A stretch of 64,000 nucleotides of DNA from an uncultured Spirochaetaceae bacterium (GCA_964551205.1 CAZKCQ010000001.1:5746-69745); one strand, 5' to 3'; positions 6,801 through 56,538 are shown, counted from the stretch's first letter. The notes: a model not told the origin generated them from the letters alone. Numbers and translations: made by a program.

Positions 6801-7883
6801 ATGATGACATCCAGGGATCGGATCATTCGACACATGAATGGGGAGAAAACAGATCGTCTTCCCTTCGTTATTCGCTGGGAGCCGTGGGATCAGGCTATCG
6901 AGCGGTGGAAGAGTGAAGGAATGAAGACTGACGACGAATGGTATACTCTGTTCGACTTCGATCCCTTCTACGTGGAGGCCGGCGTGAACTTCAGCATCTG
7001 CCCGCCCTTCGAACGGGAGATCCTGGAGGATGAAGGAGAAACTATCGTGTTCAGGGACGAGCAGGGCACGGTCAAACGGGACTACAAGGGCACTATGACC
7101 ATGCCCCAGTTCCTCGATTACCCCGTGAAGGATCGAAAAAGTTGGGAGGAGCACAAGTGGCGCTTCGATCCCGACACTCCGGAACGCTTCCCCCCCGATT
7201 GGGACAAGAGGGCAAAAGAGCTGAGAGACTCTGAGGCCATCGTTCTGGTGGGGACCTATCCCTACGGCTTCTACGGCGGCGTAAGAACCATGATGGGGGC
7301 GGAGTCCTCCCTGGTGGCCTGCGCCCTGGATCCGGAGCTCATCGAAAAAATCAACGCCCACCTCTGCAATCTCTGGTACCGGCTGCTGGAACGAATTTTC
7401 GAGGAAACCAGGCTCGATGAGATCGCCTTCTGGGAGGACATGGCGGGAAAACAGGGATCTCTGATCTCCCCGGCCATGTTCCGAAGATACATGACTCCCA
7501 ACTACCGCAGGCTCACGGATCTAGCGGCGCAAGGGGGAGTGAAAATCTGTTCCGTGGACAGCGACGGGTTCATGCACGAGCTGACCGGCCTGTTCATCGA
7601 AGCGGGCGTCACCACCATTTATCCCTACGAGGTGCAGGCGGGAAACGAGATCCCCTATCTGCTGAACAGGCATCCTGAGCTCAGGGCCATGGGCGGTATC
7701 GACAAGCGGGCCCTGTCAGAAGGCAAAAAAGCCATCGATGCGGAAATCGAACGGGTTTCTTCAATCGTGAAGCTGGGCCGCTATATCCCCTTCATCGATC
7801 ACCTCATCCCCTCCGACGTTTCCTGGCAGGACTACCAGTACTTCGTGTGGAGATGGAAGGAGATGACAGGAAAGAGGAGTTGA
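6801..7883 (+). CDS. Uroporphyrinogen decarboxylase (URO-D)/MtaA-like family protein (paralogue 1)
   Basis: The ORF-track start at 6717 is a TTG lying inside the promoter/palindrome region, so the internal ATG-ATG at 6801 is preferred. URO-D-like motifs are 'MTMPQFLDYPVK', 'FWEDMAGKQGSLISPAMFRRY' and 'KICSVDSDG'. It is about 45% similar by eye to the 55438 paralogue. Confidence 0.75.
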   Translation: MMTSRDRIIRHMNGEKTDRLPFVIRWEPWDQAIERWKSEGMKTDDEWYTLFDFDPFYVEAGVNFSICPPFEREILEDEGETIVFRDEQGTVKRDYKGTMTMPQFLDYPVKDRKSWEEHKWRFDPDTPERFPPDWDKRAKELRDSEAIVLVGTYPYGFYGGVRTMMGAESSLVACALDPELIEKINAHLCNLWYRLLERIFEETRLDEIAFWEDMAGKQGSLISPAMFRRYMTPNYRRLTDLAAQGGVKICSVDSDGFMHELTGLFIEAGVTTIYPYEVQAGNEIPYLLNRHPELRAMGGIDKRALSEGKKAIDAEIERVSSIVKLGRYIPFIDHLIPSDVSWQDYQYFVWRWKEMTGKRS

Positions 7884-8023
7884 GCGGGTTTTCTACCCCT
7901 TTTGCAGTTCCTCCCTGGCGGTTTGTACGAAGGCGATGTAATTCTCCCCGACCGGCGCTCCGGTTCCGCCGCTTCGCACATGGTCGAGAAATCGCTTGCG
8001 TGGGCTTGCTGCTGCCGTAGCTA

Positions 8024-9085
8024 CTACCTTCGGCCCAGCTCGCGTTTGAGCCGGGTGTAAGCCTCGATGTTGGCGATCGGGATGTTGTGGGGCAGGTCCC
8101 CCGCAGATTTGAAAAAGTACCCGGGGTATCGCCTGCCCAGATCGGCGCAGCGCCGAACCTCCGCCTTGATCTCCTGGTAGCTGCCGCGGGTGAGGATCTG
8201 GGTGTCGATGTTGCCCACGACGGAGTGATCATTGCCGTATCGCTCCAGGATCGATTGCAGGTTGTTGCTGGTGTCGATATGGATTCCATCGATGCCCAGG
8301 GCGATCAGGTCGGGGATCAGCTCCTCGAAGCGGCCGTCGCTGACAAAGACGATGATCTTACCCGCCTGGCGCGCCGGCTCCAGGATGCGTTCGTAGCGGG
8401 GAAAGATCTCCCGTCGATACCACTCCGGGGCAAAAACCAGCCCCCTGGTAATGGCCACATCGTCATGGAAAAAGAACACCGGGCAGTCGTCTTGCACCCA
8501 CTCGCTGACGTTTTGCACACTGATCTCCGTGAACTGGTCAAGGATGATTCCGAAGGTCTGCGGATCTAGGGCTGCAGCGGTCAGGAAATGCTCCCAGCCG
8601 AAGGCCATGATGCCGAACTGAAACAGGGTGGTGTAATAGATGCCGGTAATCAGCACCGAGTCACCGGCCTGCCGGCGGCTTTGCCGCGGGCTCTGAATGC
8701 GCTCATCCCGCCACTTGCGGCTCACGACCCGGACCCGCCCTTCGCGGTCCGCCAAAGGGCGATAGGCCAGGACCTCCTCCGCACTGCGGAAGCCGTAGTC
8801 CTCCTCCCAGGGGCTGCCGCTGCATCCCCATTCGGTGAGCTTGCTGCCGTCTTCCCGCATGATGGTGGATTGTCCCCCTTGAAACCGAACCGCCCTCTTA
8901 GGTATGTCCACAATCCAGTCGATCTCCAGCAACGGCAGCGCCTTGATGTAGGCCGCAACCGGATCCTGATAGGGGTCGATACCGCTCACCTTGTGCACGA
9001 TTCCCGGATGCTCCAACACTTCGAACGACGGGATGCCGTCCACCGGACGAAGACTCAAGGCATCCACCGCTCTCTTCAATCCCAT
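8024..9085 (-). CDS. URO-D/MtaA-like family protein (paralogue 2)
   Basis: 353 aa. Carries the (beta/alpha)8 URO-D-like signature, with 'FFFHDDVAITRGLVFAPEWYRREIFP' matching the conserved 'DDxxG...SPxxxRxxxxP' region. C-terminus is 'IHIDTSNN...VVGNIDTQ'. Confidence 0.7.
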   Translation of the reverse strand: MGLKRAVDALSLRPVDGIPSFEVLEHPGIVHKVSGIDPYQDPVAAYIKALPLLEIDWIVDIPKRAVRFQGGQSTIMREDGSKLTEWGCSGSPWEEDYGFRSAEEVLAYRPLADREGRVRVVSRKWRDERIQSPRQSRRQAGDSVLITGIYYTTLFQFGIMAFGWEHFLTAAALDPQTFGIILDQFTEISVQNVSEWVQDDCPVFFFHDDVAITRGLVFAPEWYRREIFPRYERILEPARQAGKIIVFVSDGRFEELIPDLIALGIDGIHIDTSNNLQSILERYGNDHSVVGNIDTQILTRGSYQEIKAEVRRCADLGRRYPGYFFKSAGDLPHNIPIANIEAYTRLKRELGRR

Positions 9086-9207: not shown

Positions 9208-10278
9208 ATGCCCGGGTTGGAAAAAATCAACATGGGGTTCATCGGCTGCGGCCGAATCGCAGATCTGCACTACCTCGGCTATAAAAACGATCCGAGGGCC
9301 CGGTTGTACAGCGTGTGCGACATCAACGGGGCGTTGGCGGAGAAACGCAGACGGGAGTGGGGAGCCGTCAGGGAATATACGGATTTTCACAAGATGCTCA
9401 ACGATCCGGACTTGGATGCCGTGGAGATCCTCACCCCCAATCCGCTGCACGAGGAACCGGCGGTTGCAGCTGCAGAGGCCGGCAAGCACGTCGCGGTACA
9501 GAAGCCCCTGGCGGTGAGCCTCGACAGTGCCGACCGTATGCTGGCCGCGGCTGCCGGCAGCGGCAAAGTGTTCAGGCTGACCGAGAACTACGTGTACTAT
9601 CCGCCGATCGTACTGGCCAAGAAATTGATCGATCAGGGGGAGATCGGCGATCCTCTGAACATCCGCATCAAGTTCATAGGCGGAGCCCGGGGCGGCTGGG
9701 AGGTGCCGGGGCGTTCCTGGAAGTGGCGGTACGAAGAGCTGCAGTCCGGCCGGGGGATGCAGACCTTCGACCACGGGCACCACATGTGGTCCACGGCCTG
9801 GTTCTTCCTCGGCTCCATTGAACGGGTGATATGCTGGGTTGACCGCCTGGACGGCAAAGTCGACTGCCCGGCCTCGGTGATGTGGCAGCACCGGGAGGGG
9901 ATCCGCTACGGGATGTGCGAGTATGTCTGCGCGCCGGACATGTACGTACCGTCGAAGTACTACTCCGCCGACGAATGGATCGAGATCACCGGCACCCGGG
10001 GAATCGTGCAGGTCAACCAGTGTACGGGAAACATCAGCGACCGGGCGGCGGTGAGCCTGTACTGCGAGGGCAAATGGCGGCATTTCTCCGATGTCGACGG
10101 GGACTGGGCTTCCGGATTCGTCGGAGCCACCCGGAACTTCCTCGCCGCCGTACGAGGTGAGGAACAACCGTTTCTAAACGGGCAGCAGGGACGGGAGATC
10201 CTCAAGATCGATTTGACGATTCAGGAATCGGCCCGCAGCGGCCGCGAGGTAAATCCTGAGGAGCTGGAACCGGTCTGA
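9208..10278 (+). CDS. Gfo/Idh/MocA family oxidoreductase
   Basis: 'MGFIGCGRIADLHYLGY...SVCDI' and 'HVAVQKPLA' motifs. An AGGAGG RBS lies 8 nt upstream of the ATG. Confidence 0.85.
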   Translation: MPGLEKINMGFIGCGRIADLHYLGYKNDPRARLYSVCDINGALAEKRRREWGAVREYTDFHKMLNDPDLDAVEILTPNPLHEEPAVAAAEAGKHVAVQKPLAVSLDSADRMLAAAAGSGKVFRLTENYVYYPPIVLAKKLIDQGEIGDPLNIRIKFIGGARGGWEVPGRSWKWRYEELQSGRGMQTFDHGHHMWSTAWFFLGSIERVICWVDRLDGKVDCPASVMWQHREGIRYGMCEYVCAPDMYVPSKYYSADEWIEITGTRGIVQVNQCTGNISDRAAVSLYCEGKWRHFSDVDGDWASGFVGATRNFLAAVRGEEQPFLNGQQGREILKIDLTIQESARSGREVNPEELEPV

Positions 10279-10312
10279 ACCGCAAGCGATCCGGCGGGAG
10301 GGGCTTCCCGAC

Positions 10313-11203
10313 TCAGCCCTTCACCGCCCCCACAATGATGCCCTTGATGAAGTACTTCTGGACGAAGGGATAGAGGAAAATAATCGGACCAATGGTAACC
10401 AGACCGGTGGCCATCTTGACGCCCTCGGCGGGAAGAATGCCGCTGGCATCGCTCTGAACAGCCGAGGCGGTTGCAGACCTGAGAAACTGCACATTGGAGA
10501 TGATCGCCCGCAGCAACAACTGCACTGGAAAAAGGCGATGGTTCTCGATAAACATGAGACCCAACCACCAGTCGTTCCAGTAGCCAAGCGCAACGAACAG
10601 CCCGACGGTGGCCAGCCCCGGTTTGGCTAACGGCAATATGAGCCGCGTGAAAATCGTCAGCTCTCCGGCGCCGTCTATCTTGGCCGATTCCGGTATCTCC
10701 TTGGGGATCGTTCGAAAGAAATTTCTGAGAAGGAACATGTTCCAGGCGTTGACCGTATAGGGGAGTATCAGGGCAAAGATCGTATTCCTCAGGTGAAGGA
10801 CGCGGCTGACGATGATGTACCAGGGAACCATACCGCCGTAAAAGATCATGGTAAAGAAAGCGAAGAAGGCAATATAGTTTCGATATTTCAGGGTCGGTAC
10901 CGAGAGCGGATAGGCCAGCATGGCCGTCACCAGCAAACTCAACAAAGTACCAGCTACGGTTACCGTAACCGTGATAATATAGCCGTTTATGATCCGTCGT
11001 ATGTCGTGGTAGATCATGACCCAGGGAGCGTAGGATACCTTGTTGGGAATGAAGGCAAAACCCTTTGTTATAATCTCGGCTTCATCGGTGAAAGAGCCGC
11101 TGATAATCAACAAAAAGGGCATCAGGCAGCCGACGGAAAAGATCCCCACGACAAGATAGATGAGAATTCTGGGTACTAGCCGGATTTCCTGTTGGACAGC
11201 CAT
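10313..11203 (-). CDS. Carbohydrate ABC transporter permease (CUT1, MalG-like)
   Basis: Six predicted TM helices. EAA-loop-like motif 'AKIDGAGELTIFTRLILPLAKPGLATVGLF'. Confidence 0.85.
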   Translation of the reverse strand: MAVQQEIRLVPRILIYLVVGIFSVGCLMPFLLIISGSFTDEAEIITKGFAFIPNKVSYAPWVMIYHDIRRIINGYIITVTVTVAGTLLSLLVTAMLAYPLSVPTLKYRNYIAFFAFFTMIFYGGMVPWYIIVSRVLHLRNTIFALILPYTVNAWNMFLLRNFFRTIPKEIPESAKIDGAGELTIFTRLILPLAKPGLATVGLFVALGYWNDWWLGLMFIENHRLFPVQLLLRAIISNVQFLRSATASAVQSDASGILPAEGVKMATGLVTIGPIIFLYPFVQKYFIKGIIVGAVKG

Positions 11204-11217
11204 TACAATCAGCCCTT

Positions 11218-12144
11218 CTAGAACAAGGCGCCTTCTTCGCTAAATCTTCGAGCCAGGAGGTTGCTGCCCAAAACCAGAACAAGCCCCACCACTGATTGAT
11301 AAAGCCCGGCGGCTGCGGACATACCGATATCTCCCAGTTGGCGCAGAGCTCTGTAAACATAGGTGTCGATTACGTTCGTCGTTCGATACAGCATAGAGTT
11401 ATCCCCGATGATGCCGTAGATCATGCCAAAATCACTGATCATGATGCGGCCTATCGCCAGAAGAGTCAGCACCACGGCTGTCGGGATGATCAAAGGAATA
11501 CTTATGCGGGAGATCTGAGTCCATTTACCTGCTCCATCGATCTGCGCTGCCTCGTAGAGCTCTTCGTTTATACCGGCCAAGGCGGCCAGGTAGATGATGA
11601 CCCCGAAACCAGTCCACTTCCAGTCGTAGATCAGGGTCAGAAACCAGGTCCAATATTCTGCCCGAGCGAGCCAGCTGACCGGCGCTATACCGAAATGTCT
11701 TAGAATCCGATTGAGAGCGCCATGGTCGGAATGAAAAAAATTGTAGGTAAAGACGGCAACAATGATCCAGGATATGAAGTAGGGAAAAAACATGAGAGAT
11801 TGGGTAGTTTGTTTGAACCATCTCGAACTAATTTCATTTAAAAGTAGTGCAAACCCGATCTGCAGGATCAAACTGGTGAAAATGAACAAAGAGTTCAGAA
11901 CGATGGTATTTCGTGTTACCGTCCAGGCATCGGTGGAATTGAAGAAGAAGCCGAAGTTCTTGAAGCCGACCCAGGAGCTTCGAAAAAACCCATCGATGTA
12001 ATTGAAATCCTTGAAGACGACGATAATGCCGAACATCGGAAGGTAGTTGAAGAGAAGGAAAAATACGATCCCCGGAATAGTCATCAGATAGAGCGCATGG
12101 TTTCTGCGCATCTCATTTAAAAATATCCGTATTGGGCGCTGCAT
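11218..12144 (-). CDS. Carbohydrate ABC transporter permease (CUT1, MalF-like)
   Basis: 'AAQIDGAGKWTQISRISIPLIIP' EAA motif and hydrophobic helices. Directly upstream of the MalG-like gene. Confidence 0.85.
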   Translation of the reverse strand: MQRPIRIFLNEMRRNHALYLMTIPGIVFFLLFNYLPMFGIIVVFKDFNYIDGFFRSSWVGFKNFGFFFNSTDAWTVTRNTIVLNSLFIFTSLILQIGFALLLNEISSRWFKQTTQSLMFFPYFISWIIVAVFTYNFFHSDHGALNRILRHFGIAPVSWLARAEYWTWFLTLIYDWKWTGFGVIIYLAALAGINEELYEAAQIDGAGKWTQISRISIPLIIPTAVVLTLLAIGRIMISDFGMIYGIIGDNSMLYRTTNVIDTYVYRALRQLGDIGMSAAAGLYQSVVGLVLVLGSNLLARRFSEEGALF

Positions 12145-12244
12145 GAAACTCCTTATACACTATCACCTTGAGGAATGCAACAAAGAAGACGGGATAGAAC
12201 TTTCTCTATCCCGTCTTGCGATGTCTTTAAAACTGTGGTTGCGT

Positions 12245-13765
12245 TTACTTAGAGGCCAACCAGGAATCCAGCTGCTTCTGCAGCTCCGCCAGGATCTTCT
12301 CGCTGCCGGCAGCTTTCTGCTTGGCGAGGTAGTCGTTGTAGGCTGTGGCGGGGTCCACCGCGCCCAACTCGATGGCGCGTCCGACATTCTGCCGCAGGCT
12401 GCTTCTCTGGGCGATCTCATTCTTCACATCGCTGATTTCAGGGAAAAAGCCGACATGGGGGAGCAGCTTGTCATTGATGTAGGTGGCTTTCAAGACTTTC
12501 TCCATCCACCCGGGTTCATCGTCCACCGTGGGCCGCTCAAGCTCCGGCCAGAAGGCACACCAGCGCCCGTGCCAGCCGTAGTACGGACTATCCGCCATTG
12601 TGTAGGGAGCGGGAATCACCACCGCTCTATTCGGTCCCTCTTCCCAGTGCTTGCCCTTGATCCCGTACATGACCAGGTCGTAGTTGTCCTGGTTCAGATG
12701 CATCCATTCCCAGAACCGCATAGCCTTTTCGGGATGAGCCCCATTTCTGTTAAATAACAGGATGTTGTTCATCGGGGGGGAGAGGGGTCCCTGGAGGTCA
12801 ACCCGCAGCAGGTGGCCTTTTACTTCCCAATCCGGGTGGTTCGGCTTGATCTGCATGTTCATCTCGTTCTCACTGTCGAAGATATGGACAAATGAGGCTG
12901 CCTTACCGGTGATCATCAGATCTTTATAGCTCGTCTGTTGGGCAAGTACGTCCTTCTCGAAGTAACCGTTCAGGTACCAGCGGCGGAACCTTTTAGTCAG
13001 ATCCTTGTAAAGGTCGGTTGTCTCGAAATCGATGAGCTTCAACTTTGGGTCGTCCAGCTTGTAGACGATGTTCCATTGTTCGTTCAAGGACCCGTATCCC
13101 CCAACATACGCAAACGGCGAGATCCACACCAATTCCTGGGAAACCGCGGATGGGATCATTGCCGGTTCATTCTTGACCATGGCGTCGAGGAATTTCTCGT
13201 AGTCATCCAGCGTGAACACATCCCCGTTCAATGTGTCGAAGTTTTTCAACCCGTATTTCTTGTACAGGTCGTAACGGATCTGAACGGAACGTCGCTCCGA
13301 TTTGGGCCAGCGCCAGGGGATGCCGATGATGTGCCCACCGTACTTGCTGGCTTCCCATTTATCCTTTTCCACAGTTTCCCAGATGTGCGGAGCGTACTTG
13401 GGCAGCATATCCTCAATGGCCAGGAAAGCGCCCTGTGGGGCCATAGTCGGAATAGCACCCCAGTCGCCGTCAAAGTGACACTCGTAGGTTTCCCCGGCGG
13501 CAACCATAGCCCGCAGCTTGTTCTGGTAATCTGCCCAGGGAACGAAGTTGAACACAACTTTGGCTGCAATTCCATCCGCCTGGATCCTGCTGTTCACCTC
13601 GTCAAGGACCGTGTCCAGCTCTCTTGGGACGACTCCGGGGAACCAGAACGTGATTGTGTCGATCTGCTCTTCCGAACCGCCACCGGCGAAGGCTTGGGTT
13701 GAGATAAAGCCCATGGCGAGTAGGGATAGCAAGAGGACCGAAACAATTTTCAGAGGTCTTTTCAT
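12245..13765 (-). CDS. Extracellular solute-binding protein, large type (lipoprotein) of sugar ABC transporter
   Basis: Signal peptide 'MKRPLKIVSVLLLSLLAMGFISTQAFAGGGS'. 506 aa SBP_bac_1-like protein. First gene of the SBP-permease-permease operon, with a GGAGGAGGAGG RBS. Confidence 0.8.
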   Translation of the reverse strand: MKRPLKIVSVLLLSLLAMGFISTQAFAGGGSEEQIDTITFWFPGVVPRELDTVLDEVNSRIQADGIAAKVVFNFVPWADYQNKLRAMVAAGETYECHFDGDWGAIPTMAPQGAFLAIEDMLPKYAPHIWETVEKDKWEASKYGGHIIGIPWRWPKSERRSVQIRYDLYKKYGLKNFDTLNGDVFTLDDYEKFLDAMVKNEPAMIPSAVSQELVWISPFAYVGGYGSLNEQWNIVYKLDDPKLKLIDFETTDLYKDLTKRFRRWYLNGYFEKDVLAQQTSYKDLMITGKAASFVHIFDSENEMNMQIKPNHPDWEVKGHLLRVDLQGPLSPPMNNILLFNRNGAHPEKAMRFWEWMHLNQDNYDLVMYGIKGKHWEEGPNRAVVIPAPYTMADSPYYGWHGRWCAFWPELERPTVDDEPGWMEKVLKATYINDKLLPHVGFFPEISDVKNEIAQRSSLRQNVGRAIELGAVDPATAYNDYLAKQKAAGSEKILAELQKQLDSWLASK

Positions 13766-13789
13766 TTCCTCCTCCTCCTGTTTTTTTTT

Positions 13790-13806
13790 ATAGCGCGAGG
13801 CGCTAT
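13790..13806. promoter_or_regulatory. Perfect inverted repeat ATAGCGC-GAG-GCGCTAT flanked by T9 and T6 runs; candidate operator or 5'-UTR hairpin of the SBP operon
   Basis: Seen directly in sequence at 13781-13812. It lies about 25 nt upstream of the SBP start and downstream of the predicted minus-strand promoter. Confidence 0.4.
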
Positions 13807-13822
13807 TTTTTGCTGTTGATCT

Positions 13823-13850
13823 ATTATATTTGCAATTTCATTATATGCAA
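13823..13850 (-). promoter_or_regulatory. Sigma70-like promoter for the ABC transporter operon (minus strand: TTGCAT-16 bp-TATAAT)
   Basis: The reverse complement of 13845-13850 is TTGCAT and that of 13823-13828 is TATAAT. The spacer is 16 bp and the region is AT-rich. Confidence 0.45.
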
Positions 13851-13942
13851 AAAACCGCTCTTGTCAACCTCCTTTCAATAGTATCCGAATCTAATCAAAA
13901 ATCAACAACATACTGACTAATTCCCAACAAATTCAAACACCG

Positions 13943-14941
13943 TTAGGCGGATTCCCGGATTACCAGCGATGGATCGTAAATTATGCGCTGATCGATCCCA
14001 TCCGCCTTTTCGATCAAATGAGCCAATAAGCTGGCGCTTCGTTTACCAATCGTTGACTTCGGAATGCTAACCGTGCTCAACGCCGGCTTGGAGAAAGAGA
14101 ACAGATCAATATCGTCGATTCCCATAACCGCAACCTCCCGGGGTACATCAATGTTGCGCTCCAAAAGAGCCTTGAGCGCACCGGTGGCGATGTAATCGCT
14201 GAAACAGAGAATCGAAAGCGGCGGCTGGTGCGTCGTGAGAATCTCCCGGGTGATATTGTAGCCGTCTTCTTGATTCACCGCATTTCGGTACACAAAACCC
14301 GGGTTTATCTCGAGTCCGTTTTCCTCCATAGCTTCGCGATATCCCCGTTCACGTTCTCTGGCGGAAGACGGTTGTGGAAAGTAATTGATGAATAATACCT
14401 TCATATGCCTTTTTTTAATCAGATGGTCCGTTGCCAAATAGCCGGCTTTGATATCGTCTGCGATAACGTAGCTGTCTCGATCTCTCGCCAAACAACGGTT
14501 CGAAAGCACATACGGAATACCGTAGTGCCCGAGCAGTTCGACTCCCTCAGAGTTCCCCAATGCCGGGGTCAGTACGACACCGGCCACGTTGATGCTTCGG
14601 CATTCTTTGATGATTTCCAGCTCTTTATCGACCCTTTCGTCGTTGTTGAAAATGAGAGTGTGGAAACCGCTGTTTGCGTTCTCCTCCTCTACTCCCCTTA
14701 TCAGCTGTGAAAAATACGGATTCGAGTTATCGGTGATTATCAATCCGATAAACCTGGTTATGTTGCTCCTCAGGCTTTTTGCGGCTTGATTCGGGATATA
14801 TTGCTTTTTTTGTACGAGCTCTAAGACCTGCCTGCGCCTGCTCTCGGAAATATCCGGATGATTCTTCAAGGCTTTGGAGATCGTGGCGATGCTAACGCCC
14901 AGTTCCGAAGCCAAGTCCCTCAGGGTTACGGTTGTTCTCAT
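13943..14941 (-). CDS. LacI family transcriptional regulator
   Basis: HTH 'VTLRDLASELGVSIATISKAL' and periplasmic-binding-fold core 'FIGLIITDNSNPYFSQL'. ATG at 14941 is preferred over the ORF-track start at 14956. Confidence 0.85.
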   Translation of the reverse strand: MRTTVTLRDLASELGVSIATISKALKNHPDISESRRRQVLELVQKKQYIPNQAAKSLRSNITRFIGLIITDNSNPYFSQLIRGVEEENANSGFHTLIFNNDERVDKELEIIKECRSINVAGVVLTPALGNSEGVELLGHYGIPYVLSNRCLARDRDSYVIADDIKAGYLATDHLIKKRHMKVLFINYFPQPSSARERERGYREAMEENGLEINPGFVYRNAVNQEDGYNITREILTTHQPPLSILCFSDYIATGALKALLERNIDVPREVAVMGIDDIDLFSFSKPALSTVSIPKSTIGKRSASLLAHLIEKADGIDQRIIYDPSLVIRESA

Positions 14942-14957
14942 GCAACGTAACGACAAC

Positions 14958-14986
14958 TTGACAGGTCAGCCATAACTATTTAGAGT
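14958..14986 (+). promoter_or_regulatory. Sigma70-like promoter (TTGACA-17 bp-TAGAGT) for the 15103-21291 operon
   Basis: Perfect -35 TTGACA at 14958-14963. The 17-bp spacer is followed by TAGAGT at 14981-14986. Divergent from the LacI gene. Confidence 0.45.
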
Positions 14987-14988
14987 AC

Positions 14989-15013
14989 TTAAACGTTATA
15001 GTAAACGTTTAAG
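14989..15013. promoter_or_regulatory. Two tandem LacI-family-type operators (TTAAACGTTATA and palindromic TAAACGTTTA)
   Basis: The core AAACGTTT with a central CG is the classic LacI/GalR-family operator centre (Cra/FruR consensus TGAAACGTTTCA). The copies are at 14989-15000 and 15002-15011, about at +1 of the predicted promoter. Confidence 0.5.
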
Positions 15014-15102
15014 CCCTCTCTACTCTATCCTGTATGAAGGTGGAAATCAAGTGACTGCGTGCACTTCTATTGCGAGATAATCCGGTGCGAATCTTCCGGC
15101 GG

Positions 15103-16159: not shown

Positions 16160-16168
16160 CTGGAAATC

Positions 16169-17002: not shown

Positions 17003-17021
17003 ATTCATGAATCGGTAAGTT

Positions 17022-45872: not shown

Positions 45873-45907
45873 ATTTTTCCTCCGCCGTTTATTTGTATTG
45901 TTTGTCG

Positions 45908-47560: not shown

Positions 47561-47628
47561 TTCAGTATCTCCTTGGTGTTGTGCATTTTCTGTCGGGGGG
47601 CGTCCCGGCGACTACCACTTCGCGACAG

Positions 47629-48453: not shown

Positions 48454-49322
48454 CTCTCCACCGCCCTCTTATTCAGAGATACGATAATGACAAGCGATAC
48501 AAGCATGACGATGAAAAAAAGAACATAGGCTGCTGCGGAAGCCCGTCCAACCTGCGAATTTTTGAAGGCTACCTTGTAAATATAGATCGATAACGTTTCC
48601 GTCACGGTTCCGGGCCCACCTTTGGTCATAGAGAAGATTTGGTCGAATTGCTTGAAGGCGAACACCAGCGTATGCACAAAATTGATGATGAATGCGTGGG
48701 TAATGAGCGGAAGTTTGACCGCGACCAGTCGCCGCCAACTTCCGGCACCGTCGATCGAGGCTGCGGCCAGCAAGTTCGCATCGACACCCAGAAGTGCGGC
48801 GGAGTAGATAAGCATCGCCACACCGATGTTCATCCAACTCGTTGCGATGATTGCCGAAAACAGAGCCATCGACGGACTGAGGAATCGGATGCTCGCCAAG
48901 GAAGTCAACCCCAGTAATTTAAAGATCGCAGGAAAGCCCAGTTTGTAGATGTAGTACCATATGAATCCGATGATGATCGGTGTAAGGATCGCCGGAAGGT
49001 AGACCAGAACCCGGGTAATCCCGTTCACTAACCTGTTCGAAGAAGCATCAATACTAATAGCGATGATGAGAGCAACTGAGTTTATCAGTACTGAGGAGAT
49101 AAGCACGTAAATGACTGTTACCCGCAATGAGTTGAGGAAACGCTCTTCACCGAAGATCGTAATATAGTTCTGGAGTCCGACGAAATGAAGCTTCTCGACG
49201 AAGCTGGAGATGTCGGTAAGCGAAAGATAGAAGCCGAAGAATATCGGAAAGAGAACAAAGATCCCATAGAGGAACAATCCAGGGAACGTGAATAGAAATG
49301 ATTTTCTTGCAGAAATGAGCAT
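48450..49322 (-). CDS. Carbohydrate ABC transporter permease (MalF-like)
   Basis: Internal ATG ('MLISARKSF...') with an AAGGTG SD 5 nt upstream. I could not confirm a start codon at the ORF-track start 49382, and my coordinate reading there may be off by ±1 nt. 'AASIDGAGSWRRLVAVKLPLI' EAA motif. Confidence 0.8.
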   Translation of the reverse strand: MLISARKSFLFTFPGLFLYGIFVLFPIFFGFYLSLTDISSFVEKLHFVGLQNYITIFGEERFLNSLRVTVIYVLISSVLINSVALIIAISIDASSNRLVNGITRVLVYLPAILTPIIIGFIWYYIYKLGFPAIFKLLGLTSLASIRFLSPSMALFSAIIATSWMNIGVAMLIYSAALLGVDANLLAAASIDGAGSWRRLVAVKLPLITHAFIINFVHTLVFAFKQFDQIFSMTKGGPGTVTETLSIYIYKVAFKNSQVGRASAAAYVLFFIVMLVSLVIIVSLNKRAVER

Positions 49323-49385
49323 ATCCGCACCTTGTCGGAAGGAAGATACGCTGCACCGACGGCGATGCAGCGTACATTTCACTTT

Positions 49386-50648
49386 CTATTTACTGTACAC
49401 CTTGTACGCTTCGAGGAGATAGTTCTCCAAGGTTTGATTGGTATCATTCGCTGTGATCATTCCCGCGTTGAACTCCTGCAGTTTCGCACTCCAGTCCGAC
49501 CAAACGTTAGGCATGAACCACATGTGGTTCGGCAACGGATAGAGGGAAACTCCTGCATCTACGTACTTCTGTATGTCCTTTGCTACCGGGTCGAAGTCCG
49601 CATGGGCACCCTTCATAGCCGAGAAGATGTGGGTCACGTCTGTCCATATGTTAACTGCTTCTTCGGTTGTCAGCCATTCGACGAACTTGAGACCCATATC
49701 TTTGTCCTTGTGCTTCGCGTTGACACCGATGGTAGAATCGGCTCCGAGGATCATCACGTTTTTCTTGGCTCCATCGGGGGCCGGAGGAATGAATAAGCCG
49801 AGCTCAGCTTCGTTGTTATAGCTCAGTATCGAACTCACCGCCCAGACGCCCTGAATCACCATGGCTGCTTCGCCAATCGCGACTTTCTGGTTGCCCAATC
49901 CGTAACTCAAGTCATTGACATCCGGGTTGGCGTATTTCAGCAGCTTGGAGTACATCTCCATGGCTTTGGTCCATTCGGGGCCCGTGAAGTGCTTTTTGCC
50001 GTTGATAACGTTCATGTCGAAGTTAGGATCCGGCCCGTAGACAAACGGTGTCGCGATTGTCATCACAGCAATACCAAGTGGCCACTGATCATGACCGGTA
50101 ACCACCAGAGGGGTGACTCCCTTTGCTTTAATCTTGACACAAGCGCTGAACAGCTCGTCCCATGTTTGCGGCACCTGGACACTTGCGTCTTTAAATACCT
50201 TCTTGTTGTAGATAAAACCTTGGGCAGCTAAGTCGATCGGCAGGCTGTAGATTTTACCGTCGAGGCGTTGTCCGTCGAGAATCCCATCTTTCACACGGCT
50301 GAGGAATTTTTGATCAGTAAGATCCATCATGATTCCGGCTTTGGGAAGGATGAACCCGTAATTACCTCCTGGGATCGAGATTACCGCAGGCAAAGTTCCT
50401 GCTGCCATTCGAGCTTTGACAGCCTCATCGTAGTTACCAACACCACTGTAGACTACAGTCACATTCGGGTGCAGTACGTTGAAAGCCTTTGCCCATGCCT
50501 CATAGGTTGCTGTGGCTTCTTGTTTCCACACCAGAACCTCGAGCTCAATTTTAGCTGTTCCTTCTTGGCCGCCACTTGCAAAACCTGCAACGCCAACTGC
50601 CAGAAGGAGAATTAGAACAATTAGTGTGTTTCTACGCATGTTTTTCAT
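49386..50648 (-). CDS. Sugar ABC transporter substrate-binding protein
   Basis: Signal peptide 'MKNMRRNTLIVLILLLAVGVAGFASGG'. 420 aa SBP_bac_1-type. Confidence 0.8.
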   Translation of the reverse strand: MKNMRRNTLIVLILLLAVGVAGFASGGQEGTAKIELEVLVWKQEATATYEAWAKAFNVLHPNVTVVYSGVGNYDEAVKARMAAGTLPAVISIPGGNYGFILPKAGIMMDLTDQKFLSRVKDGILDGQRLDGKIYSLPIDLAAQGFIYNKKVFKDASVQVPQTWDELFSACVKIKAKGVTPLVVTGHDQWPLGIAVMTIATPFVYGPDPNFDMNVINGKKHFTGPEWTKAMEMYSKLLKYANPDVNDLSYGLGNQKVAIGEAAMVIQGVWAVSSILSYNNEAELGLFIPPAPDGAKKNVMILGADSTIGVNAKHKDKDMGLKFVEWLTTEEAVNIWTDVTHIFSAMKGAHADFDPVAKDIQKYVDAGVSLYPLPNHMWFMPNVWSDWSAKLQEFNAGMITANDTNQTLENYLLEAYKVYSK

Positions 50649-50735
50649 TTTCCTCCATTTTTCGGTAGATTTCCCACTTTTTTTCGACTATCTTTCTGTA
50701 AAATTCTTGTCTCTTCTTCCACCTCCTTTCATTTA

Positions 50736-51986
50736 TTAACTTCCGGAACCCTCCAGCAATCGCGGAATAGCGGATGGTTTGTGTAAGATACGCTCTACCA
50801 CGAGTGCGCTTACACCGACGAGTGCTGGATCGTTCGTTGACGAACTCAGCTCGATCTTAAGGTTGTGATACACACGGGGAAGTACATGTCTTTCAACGGT
50901 ATTACGGACCGTCTCAAGAAGTAAGTCGCCAAGTTTGGCCATTTCGTCACCAATCACAATTGTGTTGGGATTGAATGCGTTGATGACGCTCACCAAACCA
51001 AAACCGAGATACCATGCTGCCTTTTTCACCGCTTTGCGAACCAGCTCGTCTCCACCCTTTAAGGCCTCAACTATGGCCGGGAAAGATTGGTCCTTCGCAA
51101 GCATGCTCACTGGGTGATCGATAAGTCCTTCCTTCACTTCTCGTACGAGTGCGATTGAGGAACAGTAATGCTCGAGACAACCGTTGTTCCCGCATTCGCA
51201 TTTGGGCCCAGCAAAGTCAATACTCATATGCCCAATCTCTCCGGCGATCCCCAGGGTTCCCCGCAGAAGCCTGCCGTCGATTACAATTCCCGCTCCGATG
51301 CCCTGGCCAGCAGCCACGTAGATCATCGTTTCGTTTTCCATATGACGAGGGGATAGCCACCATTCGGCAAGGGCACCGGCCTTGGCATCATGCTCAAGGA
51401 ATACTGGGATAGGGAATGAAGACGATAGTTCTTTTTCGATAGAGACCATTTCCCAACCTGGGTATTCTGTCATGAGGGCAATCTTGCCTTCGGACCTTAC
51501 ATATGGACCAGGAATGGCAGCTCCAATTCCGAGAATCGTGAATTGGCGGGATGTGTCCAGCACTTGCGTGACATGGTCGATAATTTTCCGAATCACGGAA
51601 GCGGAGCCCACTGAGATGTCTATTGGCACCCGCTGGACCATGTTTTCTGCACCGAACAAATCGAACAGCCCGACAATGAAATAATTCCTGGTGAGCCGGA
51701 TACCAACTACCTTGTAGGCTTTGGTGTTGAGAGTGATGCCGATAGATCTCCGACCTTTCTGACCATTAATAATTCCTGTTTCAGTGACCAGACCCCAGCT
51801 GATGAGATCGTTGATGATATTTGTTATTGTGGCATTCTTAAGACCGGTCATCTTGGCTAGGTCGGCACGGGAACAAAGTTTCACTCTTCGAAGGAGCCTG
51901 ATTACTAAGGCTCGATTCATTTCCTGAACATCTTCAAGATTCATTCCCTGTTTCTGTCGTTTCGTCACCATTATCCATAAGTCCAA
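50736..51986 (-). CDS. ROK family transcriptional regulator (NagC/XylR-like)
   Basis: N-terminal HTH 'LCSRADLAKMTGLKNATITNIINDL'. ROK signature 'GIGAGIVIDGRLLRGTLGIAGEIGHMSIDFAGPKCECGNNGCLE' contains the Zn-binding CxCGxxGC. The start may be the internal Met at 51971 or 51944. Confidence 0.8.
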   Translation of the reverse strand: MDLWIMVTKRQKQGMNLEDVQEMNRALVIRLLRRVKLCSRADLAKMTGLKNATITNIINDLISWGLVTETGIINGQKGRRSIGITLNTKAYKVVGIRLTRNYFIVGLFDLFGAENMVQRVPIDISVGSASVIRKIIDHVTQVLDTSRQFTILGIGAAIPGPYVRSEGKIALMTEYPGWEMVSIEKELSSSFPIPVFLEHDAKAGALAEWWLSPRHMENETMIYVAAGQGIGAGIVIDGRLLRGTLGIAGEIGHMSIDFAGPKCECGNNGCLEHYCSSIALVREVKEGLIDHPVSMLAKDQSFPAIVEALKGGDELVRKAVKKAAWYLGFGLVSVINAFNPNTIVIGDEMAKLGDLLLETVRNTVERHVLPRVYHNLKIELSSSTNDPALVGVSALVVERILHKPSAIPRLLEGSGS

Positions 51987-52010
51987 TTCAATTTATTAAT
52001 TAATTGAATT
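51985..52010. promoter_or_regulatory. AT-rich inverted repeat AATTCAATT-N8-AATTGAATT at the 5' end of the ROK regulator gene; candidate ROK operator
   Basis: Perfect 9-bp arms seen in sequence. ROK/NagC-type operators are AT-rich palindromes. The element overlaps the 5' end of the ROK ORF or lies immediately upstream if an internal start is used. Confidence 0.35.
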
Positions 52011-52167: not shown

Positions 52168-52557
52168 TTGCAGCCACCGAGTCGATTAATTGAACACGCC
52201 CGGCAAGAACATGGATATGTAGGGGTGGCCTGGGTTCCAGCGGCGGGAGAAACGGTACTGGAAAGAGCGGGACCCGGTCCCCGCACCCTCTGGCCTTTGG
52301 ACATCGATCTGATCACAACCTCGGTGAGAAAAACCGGCCGGGTGGTGATCGTGGAGGAATCACCCGAACAGGGCGGACTGGGGGCGGAGATCGCTGTTCA
52401 GATCGCCGAACAGATTCCTGATTGTCTGCTCACCCCGGTAACCCAGATCGCCGCACCCAATACTCCGGCTCCGTTTTCACCGATCACGGAGAAGGCCTAT
52501 ATTCCTCAGCCTGAGCGGATCGCTGGAACAATCCAAAGACTCATCGAGGAGTATTGA
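52168..52557 (+). pseudogene. Orphan C-terminal fragment of a pyruvate/acetoin dehydrogenase E1 beta subunit (transketolase C-terminal domain)
   Basis: 'LWPLDIDLITTSVRKTGRVVIVEESPEQGGLGAEIAVQIAE' and 'APNTPAPFSPITEKAYIPQPERIAGTIQRL' match the last ~120 aa of E1-beta proteins. About 200 N-terminal residues are missing. The fragment has host-like GC. Confidence 0.55.
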
Positions 52558-53090: not shown

Positions 53091-53270
53091 AATCCCAAAT
53101 TCATTATTCACATTATATTTCAAAAACAACCAAAATCGACCATCTCGATATTGTCATGCCGAAATGGGTGAACTATGATGATGGCGGTTCTACATGGGCG
53201 TGATCCTGCGAAATGCCGAGCGCCCGACGGCACGATTGCCGCATGTCGACTCACAGAGGAGGAACTTTCT

Positions 53271-55430
53271 ATGTGGATCGAGGATACCTATCGCCGCCTG
53301 CATCTGGATTTCCACATGCCCGACTGGAGCCCGGAGATCCTGGCCGCATTCGACGCCGGGCAGATCGTCAGCAACGTGAAGAGGGCCAACGCCGATGCCC
53401 TTTACTTTTTCGCCAAGTGTCACTACGGCAACGCCTACTACAAGACCCAGGTAGGCAAACGTCATCGAAACATGAAGGACCGGGATTTCCTGGCCGAGAT
53501 GATCCTGGCCTGCCGGAAGGCCTCCCTGACCATTCCGGCCTACTTCAGCCTGGTCTGGGATGTGCATGTCTCCGTAAACCATCCCGAGTGGTGCATGCGC
53601 CATCCCGACGGGCAGGCTGTCACCAATCCCTGGCCCTATATCTGCTTCAACTCCCCCTACCGGCGGTACACCACGGAGATGCTGAAGGAGGTGGCGGCCT
53701 ACGACATCGACGGCATCCACTTCGACATGATCAACTTCAGCTTCAACGGTCTGTCCTGCTACTGCGACACCTGCCGGAAGATGTTCTTCAACCGCACGGG
53801 GCACCACATTCCCGAACAGCCCACCTGGGACGAAACCTGGAGGCAGTTCCTCCGGTTCCGCAATGAGACGATCCTCTCCTTCGTGTCGGACGTACGGGCG
53901 GCGGTTCACTCAGTCAAACCGGATCTGCCCATGGACTTCAACTATCACGGTTCACCGGGCTTCGACTGGCGGGCGGGCCAGAAACCGATCATGCACACCA
54001 CCTTCAACCCACAGGGTTCGGGGGAATCCTATCCGGCGGCTTTCGGGGTGCACTACACCAGCTTCGAAGCCCGTTTCCTAAAAGACCTGATTCCGGATCG
54101 ACCGGCCGAGATCGTCACCTCCCGTTTCAATGGACTTTGGGACTACACGGTGAAGAAGGAGGCCGGCCTCAAGTGGGAGCTCACCACGGCCCTATCCCAC
54201 GGCTGCAAGGTCATGGTTGTGGATCAGAACCTTCACGATGGGAGCGTGGATCCCCTGGTATACGACCGCCTGGCACCTGTGTACCGTGAGATCGAGGAAA
54301 AGGGAGAGCTCTGGGGCGGAACGCCGCTGAAGTTCGCCGCCCTGTACTACTCCGTTTCCAGCCGCGATTTCTACGCGCGGGGGGATCTGCCCAAGTACCT
54401 CCTTTCGGCGGGCGGCGCCTTCAGGGCGCTGGTGGAGAGCCACCTGCCCGTCAACGTTTTGCACGAGGAAAACTGTACCTTCGAAAAAATGAGGGTGTAT
54501 CCGGTGGTGGTCCTGGCCAACGTGGCGGCTATGAGCGATGCGGAAGCCGAGATGTTCCGCCGCTACGTGGCCGAGGGAGGAGTGTTGGTTTCCACTGGAG
54601 ACACGGCCCTGCACGATGAAGCCGGACGGCAGCGCCGGGAGCTGGCATTGGCCGATGTTCTTGGAGCAACCTACACGGGAAAGACCGAGACCCGCAACCA
54701 TTACCTCAGGGTGGAAGACGGGAAGGTCGGCTCCGGGCTCGAGGCGAAGGAGTACATCCTCTGCAATTTCCCGGGCAACATCGTAGAGCCGACCACGGGC
54801 AAGCCCCTCGGGAATCTGCACCTCAGCTTCCACGATCCCCTACCCCCCTATCAGACTTTCTCTCATCACCTGACCCCGCCGTGGCGGCAGGCCGGTCCCG
54901 CGGTCATTGTCAACGACTTCGGCAAGGGTCACTCCCTGTACACCCCCTCGCGGGTCTGCGCCGCTTACGCGGACCTATACACCCTGGCAGCACAGCGCAA
55001 GCTCCTGGCCAACCTGGTCACGGCCGAAGCCCCACCCCCGCTGACGGTGGATGCTCCGCTCAACGTGGAAGTGGTGGTGAACGAGCAGCGCAGGGGCATC
55101 ACCGGCAGCGACGGCGGCGATCCCGATTCCAAGACTCCCCCTGTCTCCCTGGTCACGGGCAAAACGCAACCGGAAAGCCGCCTGATCATCCACCTGATCG
55201 GCTACAACCCCCTCAAGGAGATCTTCACCCGCGGGTCGCAGATGGACGACCGGCCGGTACGCCCCGGCCCAACCATGGAGGAAGCGCTGCTGTATCGGGC
55301 CCGGATCGAGCTGCCGGCGGCCCCGAAATCCGTCAAAGCCTGGAGCCCCTCCACCGAGCTGAAGGTGGAAGGAAGGCAGGTGGATATTATGGTTTCAGAG
55401 ATCCACGAAGCCCTGATCGTCGAGATGTGA
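53271..55430 (+). CDS. Putative glycoside hydrolase, GH42-like / GHL6-like TIM-barrel protein
   Basis: ATG at 53271 with a GAGGAGG RBS. 'YICFNSPYRRYTTEMLKEVAAYDIDGIHFD' resembles the GH42 'YCPSSPxYRE' block. The 'LSCYCDTCR' Cys cluster resembles the GH42 Zn-binding CxC..C. The start could instead be 53175. Confidence 0.45.
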   Translation: MWIEDTYRRLHLDFHMPDWSPEILAAFDAGQIVSNVKRANADALYFFAKCHYGNAYYKTQVGKRHRNMKDRDFLAEMILACRKASLTIPAYFSLVWDVHVSVNHPEWCMRHPDGQAVTNPWPYICFNSPYRRYTTEMLKEVAAYDIDGIHFDMINFSFNGLSCYCDTCRKMFFNRTGHHIPEQPTWDETWRQFLRFRNETILSFVSDVRAAVHSVKPDLPMDFNYHGSPGFDWRAGQKPIMHTTFNPQGSGESYPAAFGVHYTSFEARFLKDLIPDRPAEIVTSRFNGLWDYTVKKEAGLKWELTTALSHGCKVMVVDQNLHDGSVDPLVYDRLAPVYREIEEKGELWGGTPLKFAALYYSVSSRDFYARGDLPKYLLSAGGAFRALVESHLPVNVLHEENCTFEKMRVYPVVVLANVAAMSDAEAEMFRRYVAEGGVLVSTGDTALHDEAGRQRRELALADVLGATYTGKTETRNHYLRVEDGKVGSGLEAKEYILCNFPGNIVEPTTGKPLGNLHLSFHDPLPPYQTFSHHLTPPWRQAGPAVIVNDFGKGHSLYTPSRVCAAYADLYTLAAQRKLLANLVTAEAPPPLTVDAPLNVEVVVNEQRRGITGSDGGDPDSKTPPVSLVTGKTQPESRLIIHLIGYNPLKEIFTRGSQMDDRPVRPGPTMEEALLYRARIELPAAPKSVKAWSPSTELKVEGRQVDIMVSEIHEALIVEM

Positions 55431-55437
55431 GCAGGAA

Positions 55438-56538
55438 ATGACCAACCGGGAGCGCTTCCGGGCCGCCCTGGCCTTCGAGCCTATGGACAGGCTCTGCCAC
55501 GTGGAGTGGGGATTCTGGGAGGAGACCTACACTCGCTGGCAGGGGGAGGGGCTTCCCGGGCGGGTCGTCTATCCGGCCTTCGACAACCTGAGCGACGGAG
55601 AGGATCTGTTCGAGCATCTCGGGGTGATCCGCTTCGGCTACCTGTTGCCCAACCAGTACTTCCTTCCCCAATTCACCTGCAAGGTGCTCGAAGAGGACGA
55701 GCACTTTCGCCTGGAACGGAATGAGAGGGGAGTGCTGGTGCGGATCAACAAGGAGAATCGTACAATTCCTCAGTTTCTGGACTATCCCGTCAAAAAACGA
55801 GAAGACTACGAAAAGCTGCGGGAGCGTTTGGCGGCCAAGACCCAAAAACGCTATCCCGGCGATTGGCCCGAGCTGGCCCGCGCAATGAGGGAGCAGGAAC
55901 ATACGGTGGTATGCACCCACATGGACGGCTTTTTCGCCTACCCCCGGGAGCTGATGGGTCTGGAGACCTTTCTCTACACCCTGTACGACGACCCGCAGCT
56001 GATCCGGAGGATGGTCCTGGAGCGGGTGAATTTCTATATCGAGGTCTACGAACGGGCGATAAAGGAAACCGCCCCCGATTTCGCCTTCCTCTGGGAGGAC
56101 ATGTGCTACCGCAATGGCCCCCTGCTTTCACCGCAGATGTTCCGGGAGTTCCTGCTCCCCGCCTATCAGAAGCTCACTTCTTTTCTACGCGGCTTGGGGA
56201 TACAGAACATCATCGTAGACAGCGACGGGGACGTGACCGCCCTCTTACCGCTCTGGCTGGAGGCGGGGGTCACGGGGATTCTGCCCTTCGAGGTTCGCGC
56301 CGGCATGAACGTGGTGCGGATCGGCGAAGATTTTCCCGGCCTGCAGATCCTTGGAGGCATCGACAAGACCGAAATCGCCAAAGGCAGGCAGGCGATCGAC
56401 GCCGAGCTGGAGCGCGTGCTGCCGCTCATGGCCAGGAGGGGAGGCTATTGCGCCGCCCTGGACCACTGGGTGCCGCCGCAGATCGGCCTGGAGGATTACC
56501 GCTATTTCGTGGAAAAGGTGCGCCGCTTCAGGGGATAG
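55438..56538 (+). CDS. URO-D/MtaA-like family protein (paralogue 7)
   Basis: 'RTIPQFLDYPVKKRED', 'LWEDMCYRNGPLLSPQMFREFLLP' and 'NIIVDSDGDVTALLPLWLEAGVTGILPFEV'. Closest paralogue to the 6801 gene. Confidence 0.8.
   Translation: MTNRERFRAALAFEPMDRLCHVEWGFWEETYTRWQGEGLPGRVVYPAFDNLSDGEDLFEHLGVIRFGYLLPNQYFLPQFTCKVLEEDEHFRLERNERGVLVRINKENRTIPQFLDYPVKKREDYEKLRERLAAKTQKRYPGDWPELARAMREQEHTVVCTHMDGFFAYPRELMGLETFLYTLYDDPQLIRRMVLERVNFYIEVYERAIKETAPDFAFLWEDMCYRNGPLLSPQMFREFLLPAYQKLTSFLRGLGIQNIIVDSDGDVTALLPLWLEAGVTGILPFEVRAGMNVVRIGEDFPGLQILGGIDKTEIAKGRQAIDAELERVLPLMARRGGYCAALDHWVPPQIGLEDYRYFVEKVRRFRG

Follow-up and report, generated by a model that had tools for sequence, protein, structure and literature searches.

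The UroD-superfamily genes of the window

The subject of this analysis is a set of seven genes of the uroporphyrinogen decarboxylase (UroD) superfamily, here called U1 to U7, which are scattered through a sugar-catabolic region of an uncultured Spirochaetaceae bacterium (GCA_964551205.1, CAZKCQ010000001.1:5746-69745). We refer to the whole stretch analysed, 64,000 nucleotides long, as the window. Two of the seven, U5 and U7, belong to a conserved GH151-like glycosidase/U5/U7/FGGY kinase module that is newly described here. By open reading frame (ORF) listing and family scans, the window holds about 52 genes, and in Pfam the neighbours of the UroD genes are GFO/IDH/MocA oxidoreductases, xylose-isomerase-like barrels, PfkB and FGGY kinases, ATP-binding cassette (ABC) sugar transporters, a GH13 protein and the GH151-like glycosidase. 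One or two UroD-type genes are usual for a whole genome, and seven in some 52 genes is far more. All seven ORFs lie where a sequence-only reading of the window had put them, and a six-frame profile search recovers precisely these seven loci, with no eighth (Table 1).

That reading had named PF01208 as the family, and five of the seven copies score above the gathering score (23.9 bits) of its hidden Markov model (HMM). U1, which does not, shares 36% identity with U7 over 368 aa (blastp 5e-71); its ORF opens at 6717 (TTG), and the homology to U7 starts at ATG 6801/6804. U5 has no Pfam match even at E<=1. It scores 18.9 bits, collinearly, on TIGR01463, and PF01208 is precomputed for about half of its 59 homologue clusters. 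The AlphaFold model of U5 has a predicted local distance difference test (pLDDT) score of 95.9, and its 26 top-ranking Foldseek matches are without exception HemE or MtaA (E ~1e-9, template-modelling score 0.6-0.68), so that U5 is, as modelled, a UroD-fold protein. Foldseek also backs the fold of U7, and all seven ORFs are (beta/alpha)8 barrels of the UroD superfamily.

The superfamily includes HemE, MetE, epoxyalkane:coenzyme M (CoM) transferase and corrinoid-dependent O-, S- and halo-demethylases (PMC10418091, PMC13222342). That the copies are true orthologues of HemE or of MtaA, MtbA or CmuA, as their Pfam family and fold might suggest, is exceedingly improbable and is ruled out by the NCBIfam cut-offs. 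On the HemE, MtaA, MtbA and mtaA_cmuA models the copies score 15-53 bits, against cut-offs of 235-600 bits. The HemE model TIGR01464 (cut-off 302.95 bits) matches U2 alone, at 25.2 bits, and on the MtaA/MtbA/CmuA models TIGR01463, NF040654, NF041608 and NF004889 (cut-offs 235-600 bits) the top score is 53 bits, for U2 on NF004889 (cut-off 244), with at most 45 bits for the other copies. The position outside the bona fide HemE and MtaA/MtbA/CmuA clades that had been assumed for them is thus borne out. Single copies compared with PDB sequences reach at best E ~7e-4, to MtaA or HemE; the family profiles of U5 and U7 find nothing there at E<=0.01, these two being placed by structure comparison only. 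The RQAGR-type N-terminal substrate-binding motif typical of HemE is in none of the seven copies, the structural alignments with HemE show 11-18% identity, and no haem-synthesis or methanogenesis genes are found among the annotated ORFs of the window.

The copies are also well separated from one another. Their pairwise identity is 21-38%, which, together with the separate orthologues that they have elsewhere, marks the set as old paralogues and not as the product of a local duplication burst. By sequence they fall into at least five anciently diverged subfamilies with their own orthologues in several lineages, and the "paralogue expansion" of the sequence-only reading is therefore misleading, there having been no recent expansion. 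The U3 family has more than 7800 homologues, of which the best 120 are at 63-77% identity; named members among these 120 come from Hydrogenedentota, Planctomycetota, KSB1, Acidobacteriota, Spirochaetales and Verrucomicrobia, and 37 aligned members average 76% identity per column. For the U7 family there are about 1400 matches, with at least 569 loci in species-representative genomes, and the U5 family is small (59 clusters). The nearest named relatives of the window proteins are spread over several phyla, and identical proteins are encoded on a 73-kb NCBI contig and on metagenome contigs from JGI and Logan.

U6 is a single frame broken by a TAA at 40114-40116, where the stop is aligned to the Gln of GDDLGMQTGP in U3 (the GDD-x3-Q-x-G stretch). 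Its orthologue in a contig of the same population (L001:17621-18733; 10 mismatches to the window in 19.5 kb, the U6 stop included) is intact, at 370 aa, and differs there by one base, C for T at 40114 (CAA versus TAA). The stop is a nonsense allele or a base-call or sequencing error. Recoding as pyrrolysine or selenocysteine is ruled out: the codon is TAA, the column is a Gln column, and the near-identical contig has CAA.

Active-site types and known relatives

The copies differ at the place of the His-x-Cys motif, which is present in U3 (HCC), U4 (HSC), U5 (HHC) and U6 (HCC), and is absent from U1 and U7 (DSD) and from U2 (VSD). In U3, LHCCGG is aligned residue for residue with LHICGN of MtaA (PDB 4ay7). 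Invariant residues are His239, Cys241, Cys204 and Asp267 in the U5 family and His300, Cys301, Cys302, Cys350 and His387 in the U3 family. Judged from these residues, U3, U4, U5 and U6 make up a zinc-type class that keeps His-x-Cys as in MtaA and MetE and has a predicted metal site.

In U1 and U7 the same place is taken by Asp-Ser-Asp (Asp261-Ser-Asp263 in U7), and the further invariants are Arg138, Arg170, Asp214, Trp219-Glu-Asp-Met222, Glu285, Lys310, Glu323 and Asp342-His343; of 41 family-conserved positions checked, U1 matches 38. The U7 model places Asp214 immediately ahead of strand 215-219, of which Trp219 is the last residue, and puts Glu220-Met222, Asp261/Asp263, Glu285, Lys310 and Asp342-His343 on or directly beyond the ends of strands 215-219, 258-261, 280-282, 303-305 and 337-339. 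This is the face on which such barrels usually have their active site. U1 and U7 are accordingly assigned to a carboxylate class, with Asp-x-Asp, Glu and Asp-His at the same strand ends, and U2, with Val-Ser-Asp, to a third, separate type.

The closest known relatives of the copies are the corrinoid methyltransferases of the UroD superfamily. U3, U4, U5 and U6 resemble MtaA, MtbA and MtsA (TIGR01463; 4ay7) in having His-x-Cys, unlike U1, U2 and U7; the window copies differ from these enzymes in lacking a nearby corrinoid protein and a methanogenesis context, and their hosts are bacteria. OdmB, VdmB, MtvB, MtoB and CdmB belong to the same superfamily, and paralogue-rich genomes are known for these enzymes. 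Some O-demethylase/dehalogenase methyltransferase I proteins are zinc-free (PMC13222342), and the beta-hairpin insertion early in the fold of the U7 model (residues 66-115) resembles the extensions of CdmB, which is not among the PDB matches listed in the structure comparison. The O-demethylases and dehalogenases have an aromatic, hydrophobic pocket (in CdmB an aromatic cavity; PMC13222342), whereas the conserved residues of U7 are charged or polar (Asp, Glu, Arg, Lys). The genes for OdmB, VdmB, MtvB, MtoB and CdmB adjoin those for a corrinoid protein and methyltransferase II, which the window copies do not, and the O-demethylase cluster layout of corrinoid protein, methyltransferase II and activase is not found in the window. 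Type 1 mlp clusters (MtaA-like proteins, corrinoid protein, RACE activase; PMC10418091) are likewise clustered UroD paralogues in non-methanogens. However, no mlp cluster lacks a corrinoid protein or an activase, and the identity of Mlp proteins to CoM methyltransferases exceeds 25% (PMC10418091), whereas the window has no match to a corrinoid protein or activase and has carbohydrate genes as the neighbours.

A conserved glycosidase/U5/U7/kinase module

On the evidence of gene order, the best-supported functional unit is a putatively co-transcribed set of a GH151-like glycosidase, a U5-type protein, a U7-type protein and an FGGY kinase, which recurs in several uncultured lineages. The glycosidase matches the alpha-L-fucosidase 6tvk in PDB (E 1.4e-31, residues 38-580 versus 31-549), which we take to be of family GH151, and shares with it the GHL6 plus GH42M architecture over 540 residues; no NCBIfam model matches it. 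In the literature searched, we found nothing relevant on a linkage of GHL6/GH151 to the UroD family.

Related loci are designated here by L numbers. In L012, genes for a GH151-like glycosidase, a U5-like protein (48% identity), a U7-like protein (53%) and an FGGY kinase follow in this order with 4-bp overlaps. L014 has the GH151-like gene (75%) and then U7 (81%), together with FGGY (68%), a DeoR regulator, two Zn-dependent alcohol dehydrogenases (Zn-ADHs), a xylose-isomerase-like barrel and a SIS protein; U5 (70%) is within 6 kb, and two more UroD genes are nearby. In both loci the FGGY kinase is directly beside the U7 orthologue. The order in L013 is U7-like, U5-like, ABC transporter and GH151-like, the last within 5 kb, and in L107 a LacI regulator and an ABC transporter are followed by GH151-like, U5 and U7. 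A U4 orthologue (65%) adjoins GH151-like and U7-like genes in L026, with FGGY in the same locus. U5 adjoins U7 in L106, L109, L112, L113 and L122, and in L131 the contig breaks off early in a U5-type gene that follows a GH151-like gene. L030 and L098 have more distantly related U5-like and U7-like genes side by side, and in L067 such a pair lies no more than a few kb apart. In L134, GH151-like and U5 precede a single 899-aa ORF (L134:11038-13737) that joins a U7-like domain to a complete FGGY kinase through a linker of about 45 aa. This fusion may be genuine or may result from a long-read indel, and we keep it as a lead only, because the contig name suggests a long-read assembly, in which indels can fuse overlapping genes. 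Module genes are separated by 4-8 bp overlaps or short gaps in L012, L013, L014, L026, L107 and L134; in the window, U5 is 21.5 kb from U7, beside U3 and U4.

Thus, the linkage to sugar genes that the sequence-only reading had pointed to is conserved elsewhere for U7, U5 and U4. It bears on the explanation that the copies are ordinary corrinoid-dependent methyltransferases for non-sugar donors (methoxylated aromatics, methylated thiols, amines), with partners elsewhere and a sugar position that is incidental in a mosaic, horizontally assembled region. Large sets of UroD-family methyltransferases are indeed known (Acetobacterium dehalogenans has 26 systems; PMC13222342), distant relatives of the copies adjoin corrinoid proteins, the composition of the window is mosaic (47 to 64% GC) and the neighbours across the whole U1/U7 family are heterogeneous. 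We nevertheless consider this explanation unlikely, since the linkage of U7, U5 and U4 to GH151-like, FGGY and ABC sugar transporter genes is conserved at 41-81% identity in several independent samples, the gene overlaps indicate co-translation with sugar genes, and the conserved U7 pocket is charged and not aromatic.

Corrinoid proteins in the window and in related loci

The absence of a corrinoid protein from the window, as claimed from the sequence alone, stands. PF02310 and PF02607 have no match in any window ORF scanned, the DxHxxG...SxL...GG motif is in no real window ORF, and an HMM built from the corrinoid proteins of related loci has no match in the six-frame translation of the window. 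This HMM is sensitive enough, because it detects the corrinoid proteins of unrelated lineages with E values no higher than 1e-64.

The corrinoid-less reading is not supported in the form in which it was given, for relatives of U7 (38-41% identity), U5 (27%) and U3 (33%) flank corrinoid proteins. Within the U1/U7 family, 7 of the 10 loci (94 kb) of a Dehalococcoidia-type clade, whose members share 38-41% identity with U7, encode a corrinoid protein, and in six Dehalococcoidia-type loci a PF02310 plus PF02607 protein of 210-230 aa is encoded about 50 nt upstream of the U7-family gene on the same strand. None of the 41 conserved positions checked differs between this clade, the U7 clade and the remainder of the family. 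At L129:858-3864 and L130:2406-5412 a corrinoid protein gene stands between two U5-like genes (26-27% identity to U5), an order known from classical methyltransferase operons. L076 holds a corrinoid protein gene adjoined by two UroD genes, one of which is U3-like at 33%. The absence of a corrinoid gene within 64 kb does not show corrinoid independence.

Proposed role

We tentatively favour, with a confidence somewhat short of even, methyl-transfer chemistry on the sugar that the glycosidase releases, with a corrinoid carrier that is encoded elsewhere or is dispensable. Methyl transfer would be the most economical chemistry for three reasons: the active-site signature of U7 is unchanged between corrinoid-linked and corrinoid-less loci, His-x-Cys is kept in U3-U6, and the recurring pair of a carboxylate-type and a zinc-type barrel looks like methyltransferase I and II minus the carrier gene. 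The gene order suggests that the substrate is a sugar from the GH151-like enzyme and that the product goes to the FGGY kinase, and O-demethylation of a methylated deoxyhexose fits this picture.

In such a scheme, the sugar released by the glycosidase would be a modified monosaccharide, for which an O-methylated deoxyhexose or hexose is the most plausible candidate. This sugar would be bound by the U7-type protein in a polar, metal-bearing pocket, and its methyl group would be passed to a cobamide, from which a zinc-type partner (U5 or U4) might hand it to a thiol or another acceptor, while the demethylated sugar would enter the kinase and dehydrogenase route. The corrinoid carrier may be encoded elsewhere in the genome, or it may be replaced in the module clade by a directly bound cobamide.

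Several observations weigh against methyl transfer, and the missing corrinoid protein, activase and methyl-tetrahydrofolate enzyme are a real difficulty. With the corrinoid HMM, a corrinoid protein was found in none of the 31 module-clade loci (318 kb, 58 UroD-like ORFs), and the clades in which such a protein occurs encode it directly alongside. Neither a RACE-type activase nor a methyl-tetrahydrofolate methyltransferase (pterin-binding/MtrH) is present among the Pfam-annotated genes of the window or of L012-L014, L134 and L135. An unbiased census of immediate neighbours in 78 loci of the U1/U7 family, which left out two long ORFs, shows no dominant partner: the 146 neighbours carry 148 Pfam families, with B12-binding in 6 cases, GFO/IDH/MocA in 4, and xylose-isomerase-like and UroD in 3 each. 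The link to sugars is therefore a trait of particular clades and not of the whole family. U3 orthologues mostly stand alone among unrelated neighbours, as in Thermoguttaceae and Acidobacteria genomes, a Hydrogenedentes genome being the only case in which they lie among glycosidases. In the literature searched, no UroD-family enzyme is reported to act on a methylated sugar. Finally, classical pathways have an aldose-ketose isomerase between the glycosidase and the FGGY kinase, so that a role other than methyl transfer fits the gene order equally well.

This last point leads to the possibility, which we regard as nearly as likely as methyl transfer, that the U5/U7 pair and perhaps other copies are corrinoid-independent sugar enzymes, performing a metal-dependent isomerisation, epimerisation or similar reaction with a barrel recruited from methyl transfer. 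In its favour, the pair lies in the classical place of the isomerase, corrinoid proteins are encoded in 0 of 31 module-clade loci against 7 of 10 Dehalococcoidia-type loci, and L134 has a possible U7-FGGY fusion. The Asp/Glu/His cluster at the strand ends of U7 is like that in metal-dependent sugar isomerases, and corrinoid-independent members of the superfamily exist in HemE, MetE and epoxyalkane:CoM transferase (PMC10418091). However, the identity of all 41 positions in the corrinoid-operonic clade argues for unchanged chemistry, the invariant His-x-Cys and additional Cys of U5 are typical of thiol-activating zinc sites, and the module loci already have candidate isomerases in their xylose-isomerase-like barrels and SIS proteins. 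Such a sugar conversion is possible, although we hold it with reserve.

A bolder and rather doubtful version, compatible with either chemistry, is that the GH151-like/U5/U7/FGGY module encodes a new two-subunit enzyme, made of a zinc-type and a carboxylate-type UroD barrel, that processes the released sugar without a dedicated corrinoid protein. This enzyme could be an anaerobic demethylase for O-methylated fucose-type sugars, acting through a directly bound cobamide or by direct methyl transfer to a thiol, or it could catalyse a wholly new sugar conversion. In either form it would be the first carbohydrate-directed function in the superfamily, and the other five copies could be specificity variants.

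Of the role on carbohydrate-derived substrates suggested by the sequence-only reading, the part that survives is the carbohydrate link, through the linkage conserved for U7, U5 and U4, while its decarboxylase or lyase variant finds no specific support. Its statement that such a role would be unassigned for this family agrees with the literature searched, in which we found no function for these subfamilies.

O-methylated sugars, such as the methyl-fucose, methyl-rhamnose and methyl-galactose of algal, plant and bacterial glycans, block ordinary catabolism, and the known route of their demethylation is oxygen-dependent, with a P450 enzyme. We know of no settled route for the anaerobic removal of sugar O-methyl groups. 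The module, in which two proteins of the superfamily of anaerobic aromatic O-demethylation are combined with a glycosidase and a sugar kinase, offers a concrete, clonable candidate. If its UroD proteins are not methyltransferases, they would represent a new sugar-converting activity for the UroD fold, and thousands of entries labelled "uroporphyrinogen decarboxylase" or "methyltransferase" would be corrected. Such annotations in metagenomes should not be taken as evidence of haem synthesis or methylotrophy.

Neighbouring genes and local composition

Table 1. UroD-superfamily genes and other features of the window.
Feature	Coordinates	Strand	Remarks
906-aa protein	11-2731	+	sole recognisable part a spermidine-synthase-like domain, residues 565-689
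GFO/IDH/MocA oxidoreductase, IclR regulator, IolD-like thiamine-pyrophosphate (TPP) enzyme	2777-6682	-	Pfam; diverge from U1
U1	6801-7883	+	PF01208 19 bits, below gathering score; Asp-Ser-Asp-Gly replaces His-x-Cys
U2	8024-9085	-	PF01208 76.8 bits; separate subfamily, Val-Ser-Asp-Gly
GFO/IDH/MocA gene	9208-10278		divergent from U2
Cyclitol-like cluster	15059-21291	+	GFO/IDH/MocA, xylose-isomerase-like barrel, PfkB kinase, inositol-3-phosphate-synthase-like protein, second GFO/IDH/MocA, NAD epimerase
ABC-2 type transporter set	21429-26122	+	ATPase, ABC-2 permease, ABC_transp_aux/DUF7088 protein, DUF4340 protein
SIS protein, PfkB-HAD fusion, GSU2086-family protein	26425-30172	+	Pfam and NCBIfam; upstream of U3/U4, same strand
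GSU2086-family protein	29069-30172	+	NCBIfam 321.6 bits, above cut-off 250; 64 nt upstream of U3
U3	30236-31459	+	PF01208 66.4 bits; member of large, strongly conserved 408-aa family
U4	31525-32565	+	PF01208 63.1 bits; His-Ser-Cys; start possibly ATG 31552
U5	32838-33890	-	highly divergent; placed by structure, no Pfam match
Fe-dependent alcohol dehydrogenase (Fe-ADH) remnant	33892-34770	-	Pfam; upstream of U5, same strand
Xylose-isomerase-like barrel	34767-35681	-	Pfam; upstream of U5, same strand
Zn-ADH	35720-36763	-	Pfam; upstream of U5, same strand
U6	39511-40623	+	His-Cys-Cys; in-frame TAA; C-terminal half 40123-40623, PF01208 61.1 bits
Transketolase C-terminal domain alone	52168-52557	+	isolated 129-aa ORF
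GH151-like glycosidase	53175-55430	+	GHL6 (Pfam 1e-28) and GH42M; first gene of module
U7	55438-56538	+	PF01208 55.7 bits; starts 8 nt past GH151-like gene
FGGY carbohydrate kinase	56563-58086	-	FGGY_N and FGGY_C (Pfam); convergent with U7
Glycyl radical enzyme	58120-60369	-	PFL-like, Gly_radical (Pfam)
Radical-SAM activase	60396-61394	-	Radical_SAM (Pfam)
DeoR regulator	61525-62322	+	Pfam; syntenic with L014
Zn-dependent alcohol dehydrogenase	62340-63359	+	Pfam; syntenic with L014

The IolD-like TPP enzyme (4802-6682) scores 117 bits on the IolD model (cut-off 715), and one member of its cluster is labelled 3D-(3,5/4)-trihydroxycyclohexane-1,2-dione acylhydrolase by its source; the inositol-3-phosphate-synthase-like protein of the cyclitol-like cluster scores 303 bits (cut-off 638). 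The cluster and the TPP enzyme raise the possibility of methylated inositols as substrates of U1 or U2. The ABC-2 set stands between the cyclitol-like cluster and the SIS and PfkB-HAD genes and is not related to the transporters with sugar-binding proteins.

The "heptose module" of the sequence-only reading is only loosely heptose-like: among the genes at 26425-30172, the SIS protein reaches 150 bits on the gmhA model (cut-off 209), and the PfkB-HAD fusion 102 bits on rfaE domain I (cut-off 345). The GSU2086-family protein next to U3 shows only a faint deoxyhypusine-synthase/ArgZ-like similarity. Upstream of U5, the Fe-ADH remnant keeps only residues 4-176 of its 391-aa orthologue in L014, the C-terminal domain being gone. 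Calls of this gene vary among contigs of the same population, with 245 aa in L017 and L018 and fragments in L015, L016 and L019-L021. The isolated transketolase ORF is probably a gene fragment.

Beyond U7, the FGGY kinase is XylB-like (233 bits, cut-off 380), and the DeoR regulator and Zn-dependent alcohol dehydrogenase are 75% and 77% identical to their L014 counterparts. Compared with L014, the glycyl radical enzyme and its activase are an insertion between the FGGY kinase and the DeoR regulator; the 749-aa enzyme belongs to no assigned subfamily, its 290 bits on the NCBIfam model of the PFL2/glycerol-dehydratase family falling short of the cut-off of 678. In L012, L035, L058, L074, L131 and L134 as well, homologues of the enzyme or the activase are encoded near U7-like or U5-type genes.

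No Rfam family, the cobalamin riboswitch included, has a match in the window. The guanine-plus-cytosine (GC) content of the window ranges from 47 to 64%, with two lower-GC blocks, at 10000-21500 (50-53%) and 40000-52000 (47-50%), inside a region of 57-64% GC. Each block is a self-contained sugar cassette with a regulator, an ABC transporter, oxidoreductases and a kinase, which suggests that the region has been assembled horizontally. U6 lies at the border of the second block, and its third-position GC is below that of the other copies.

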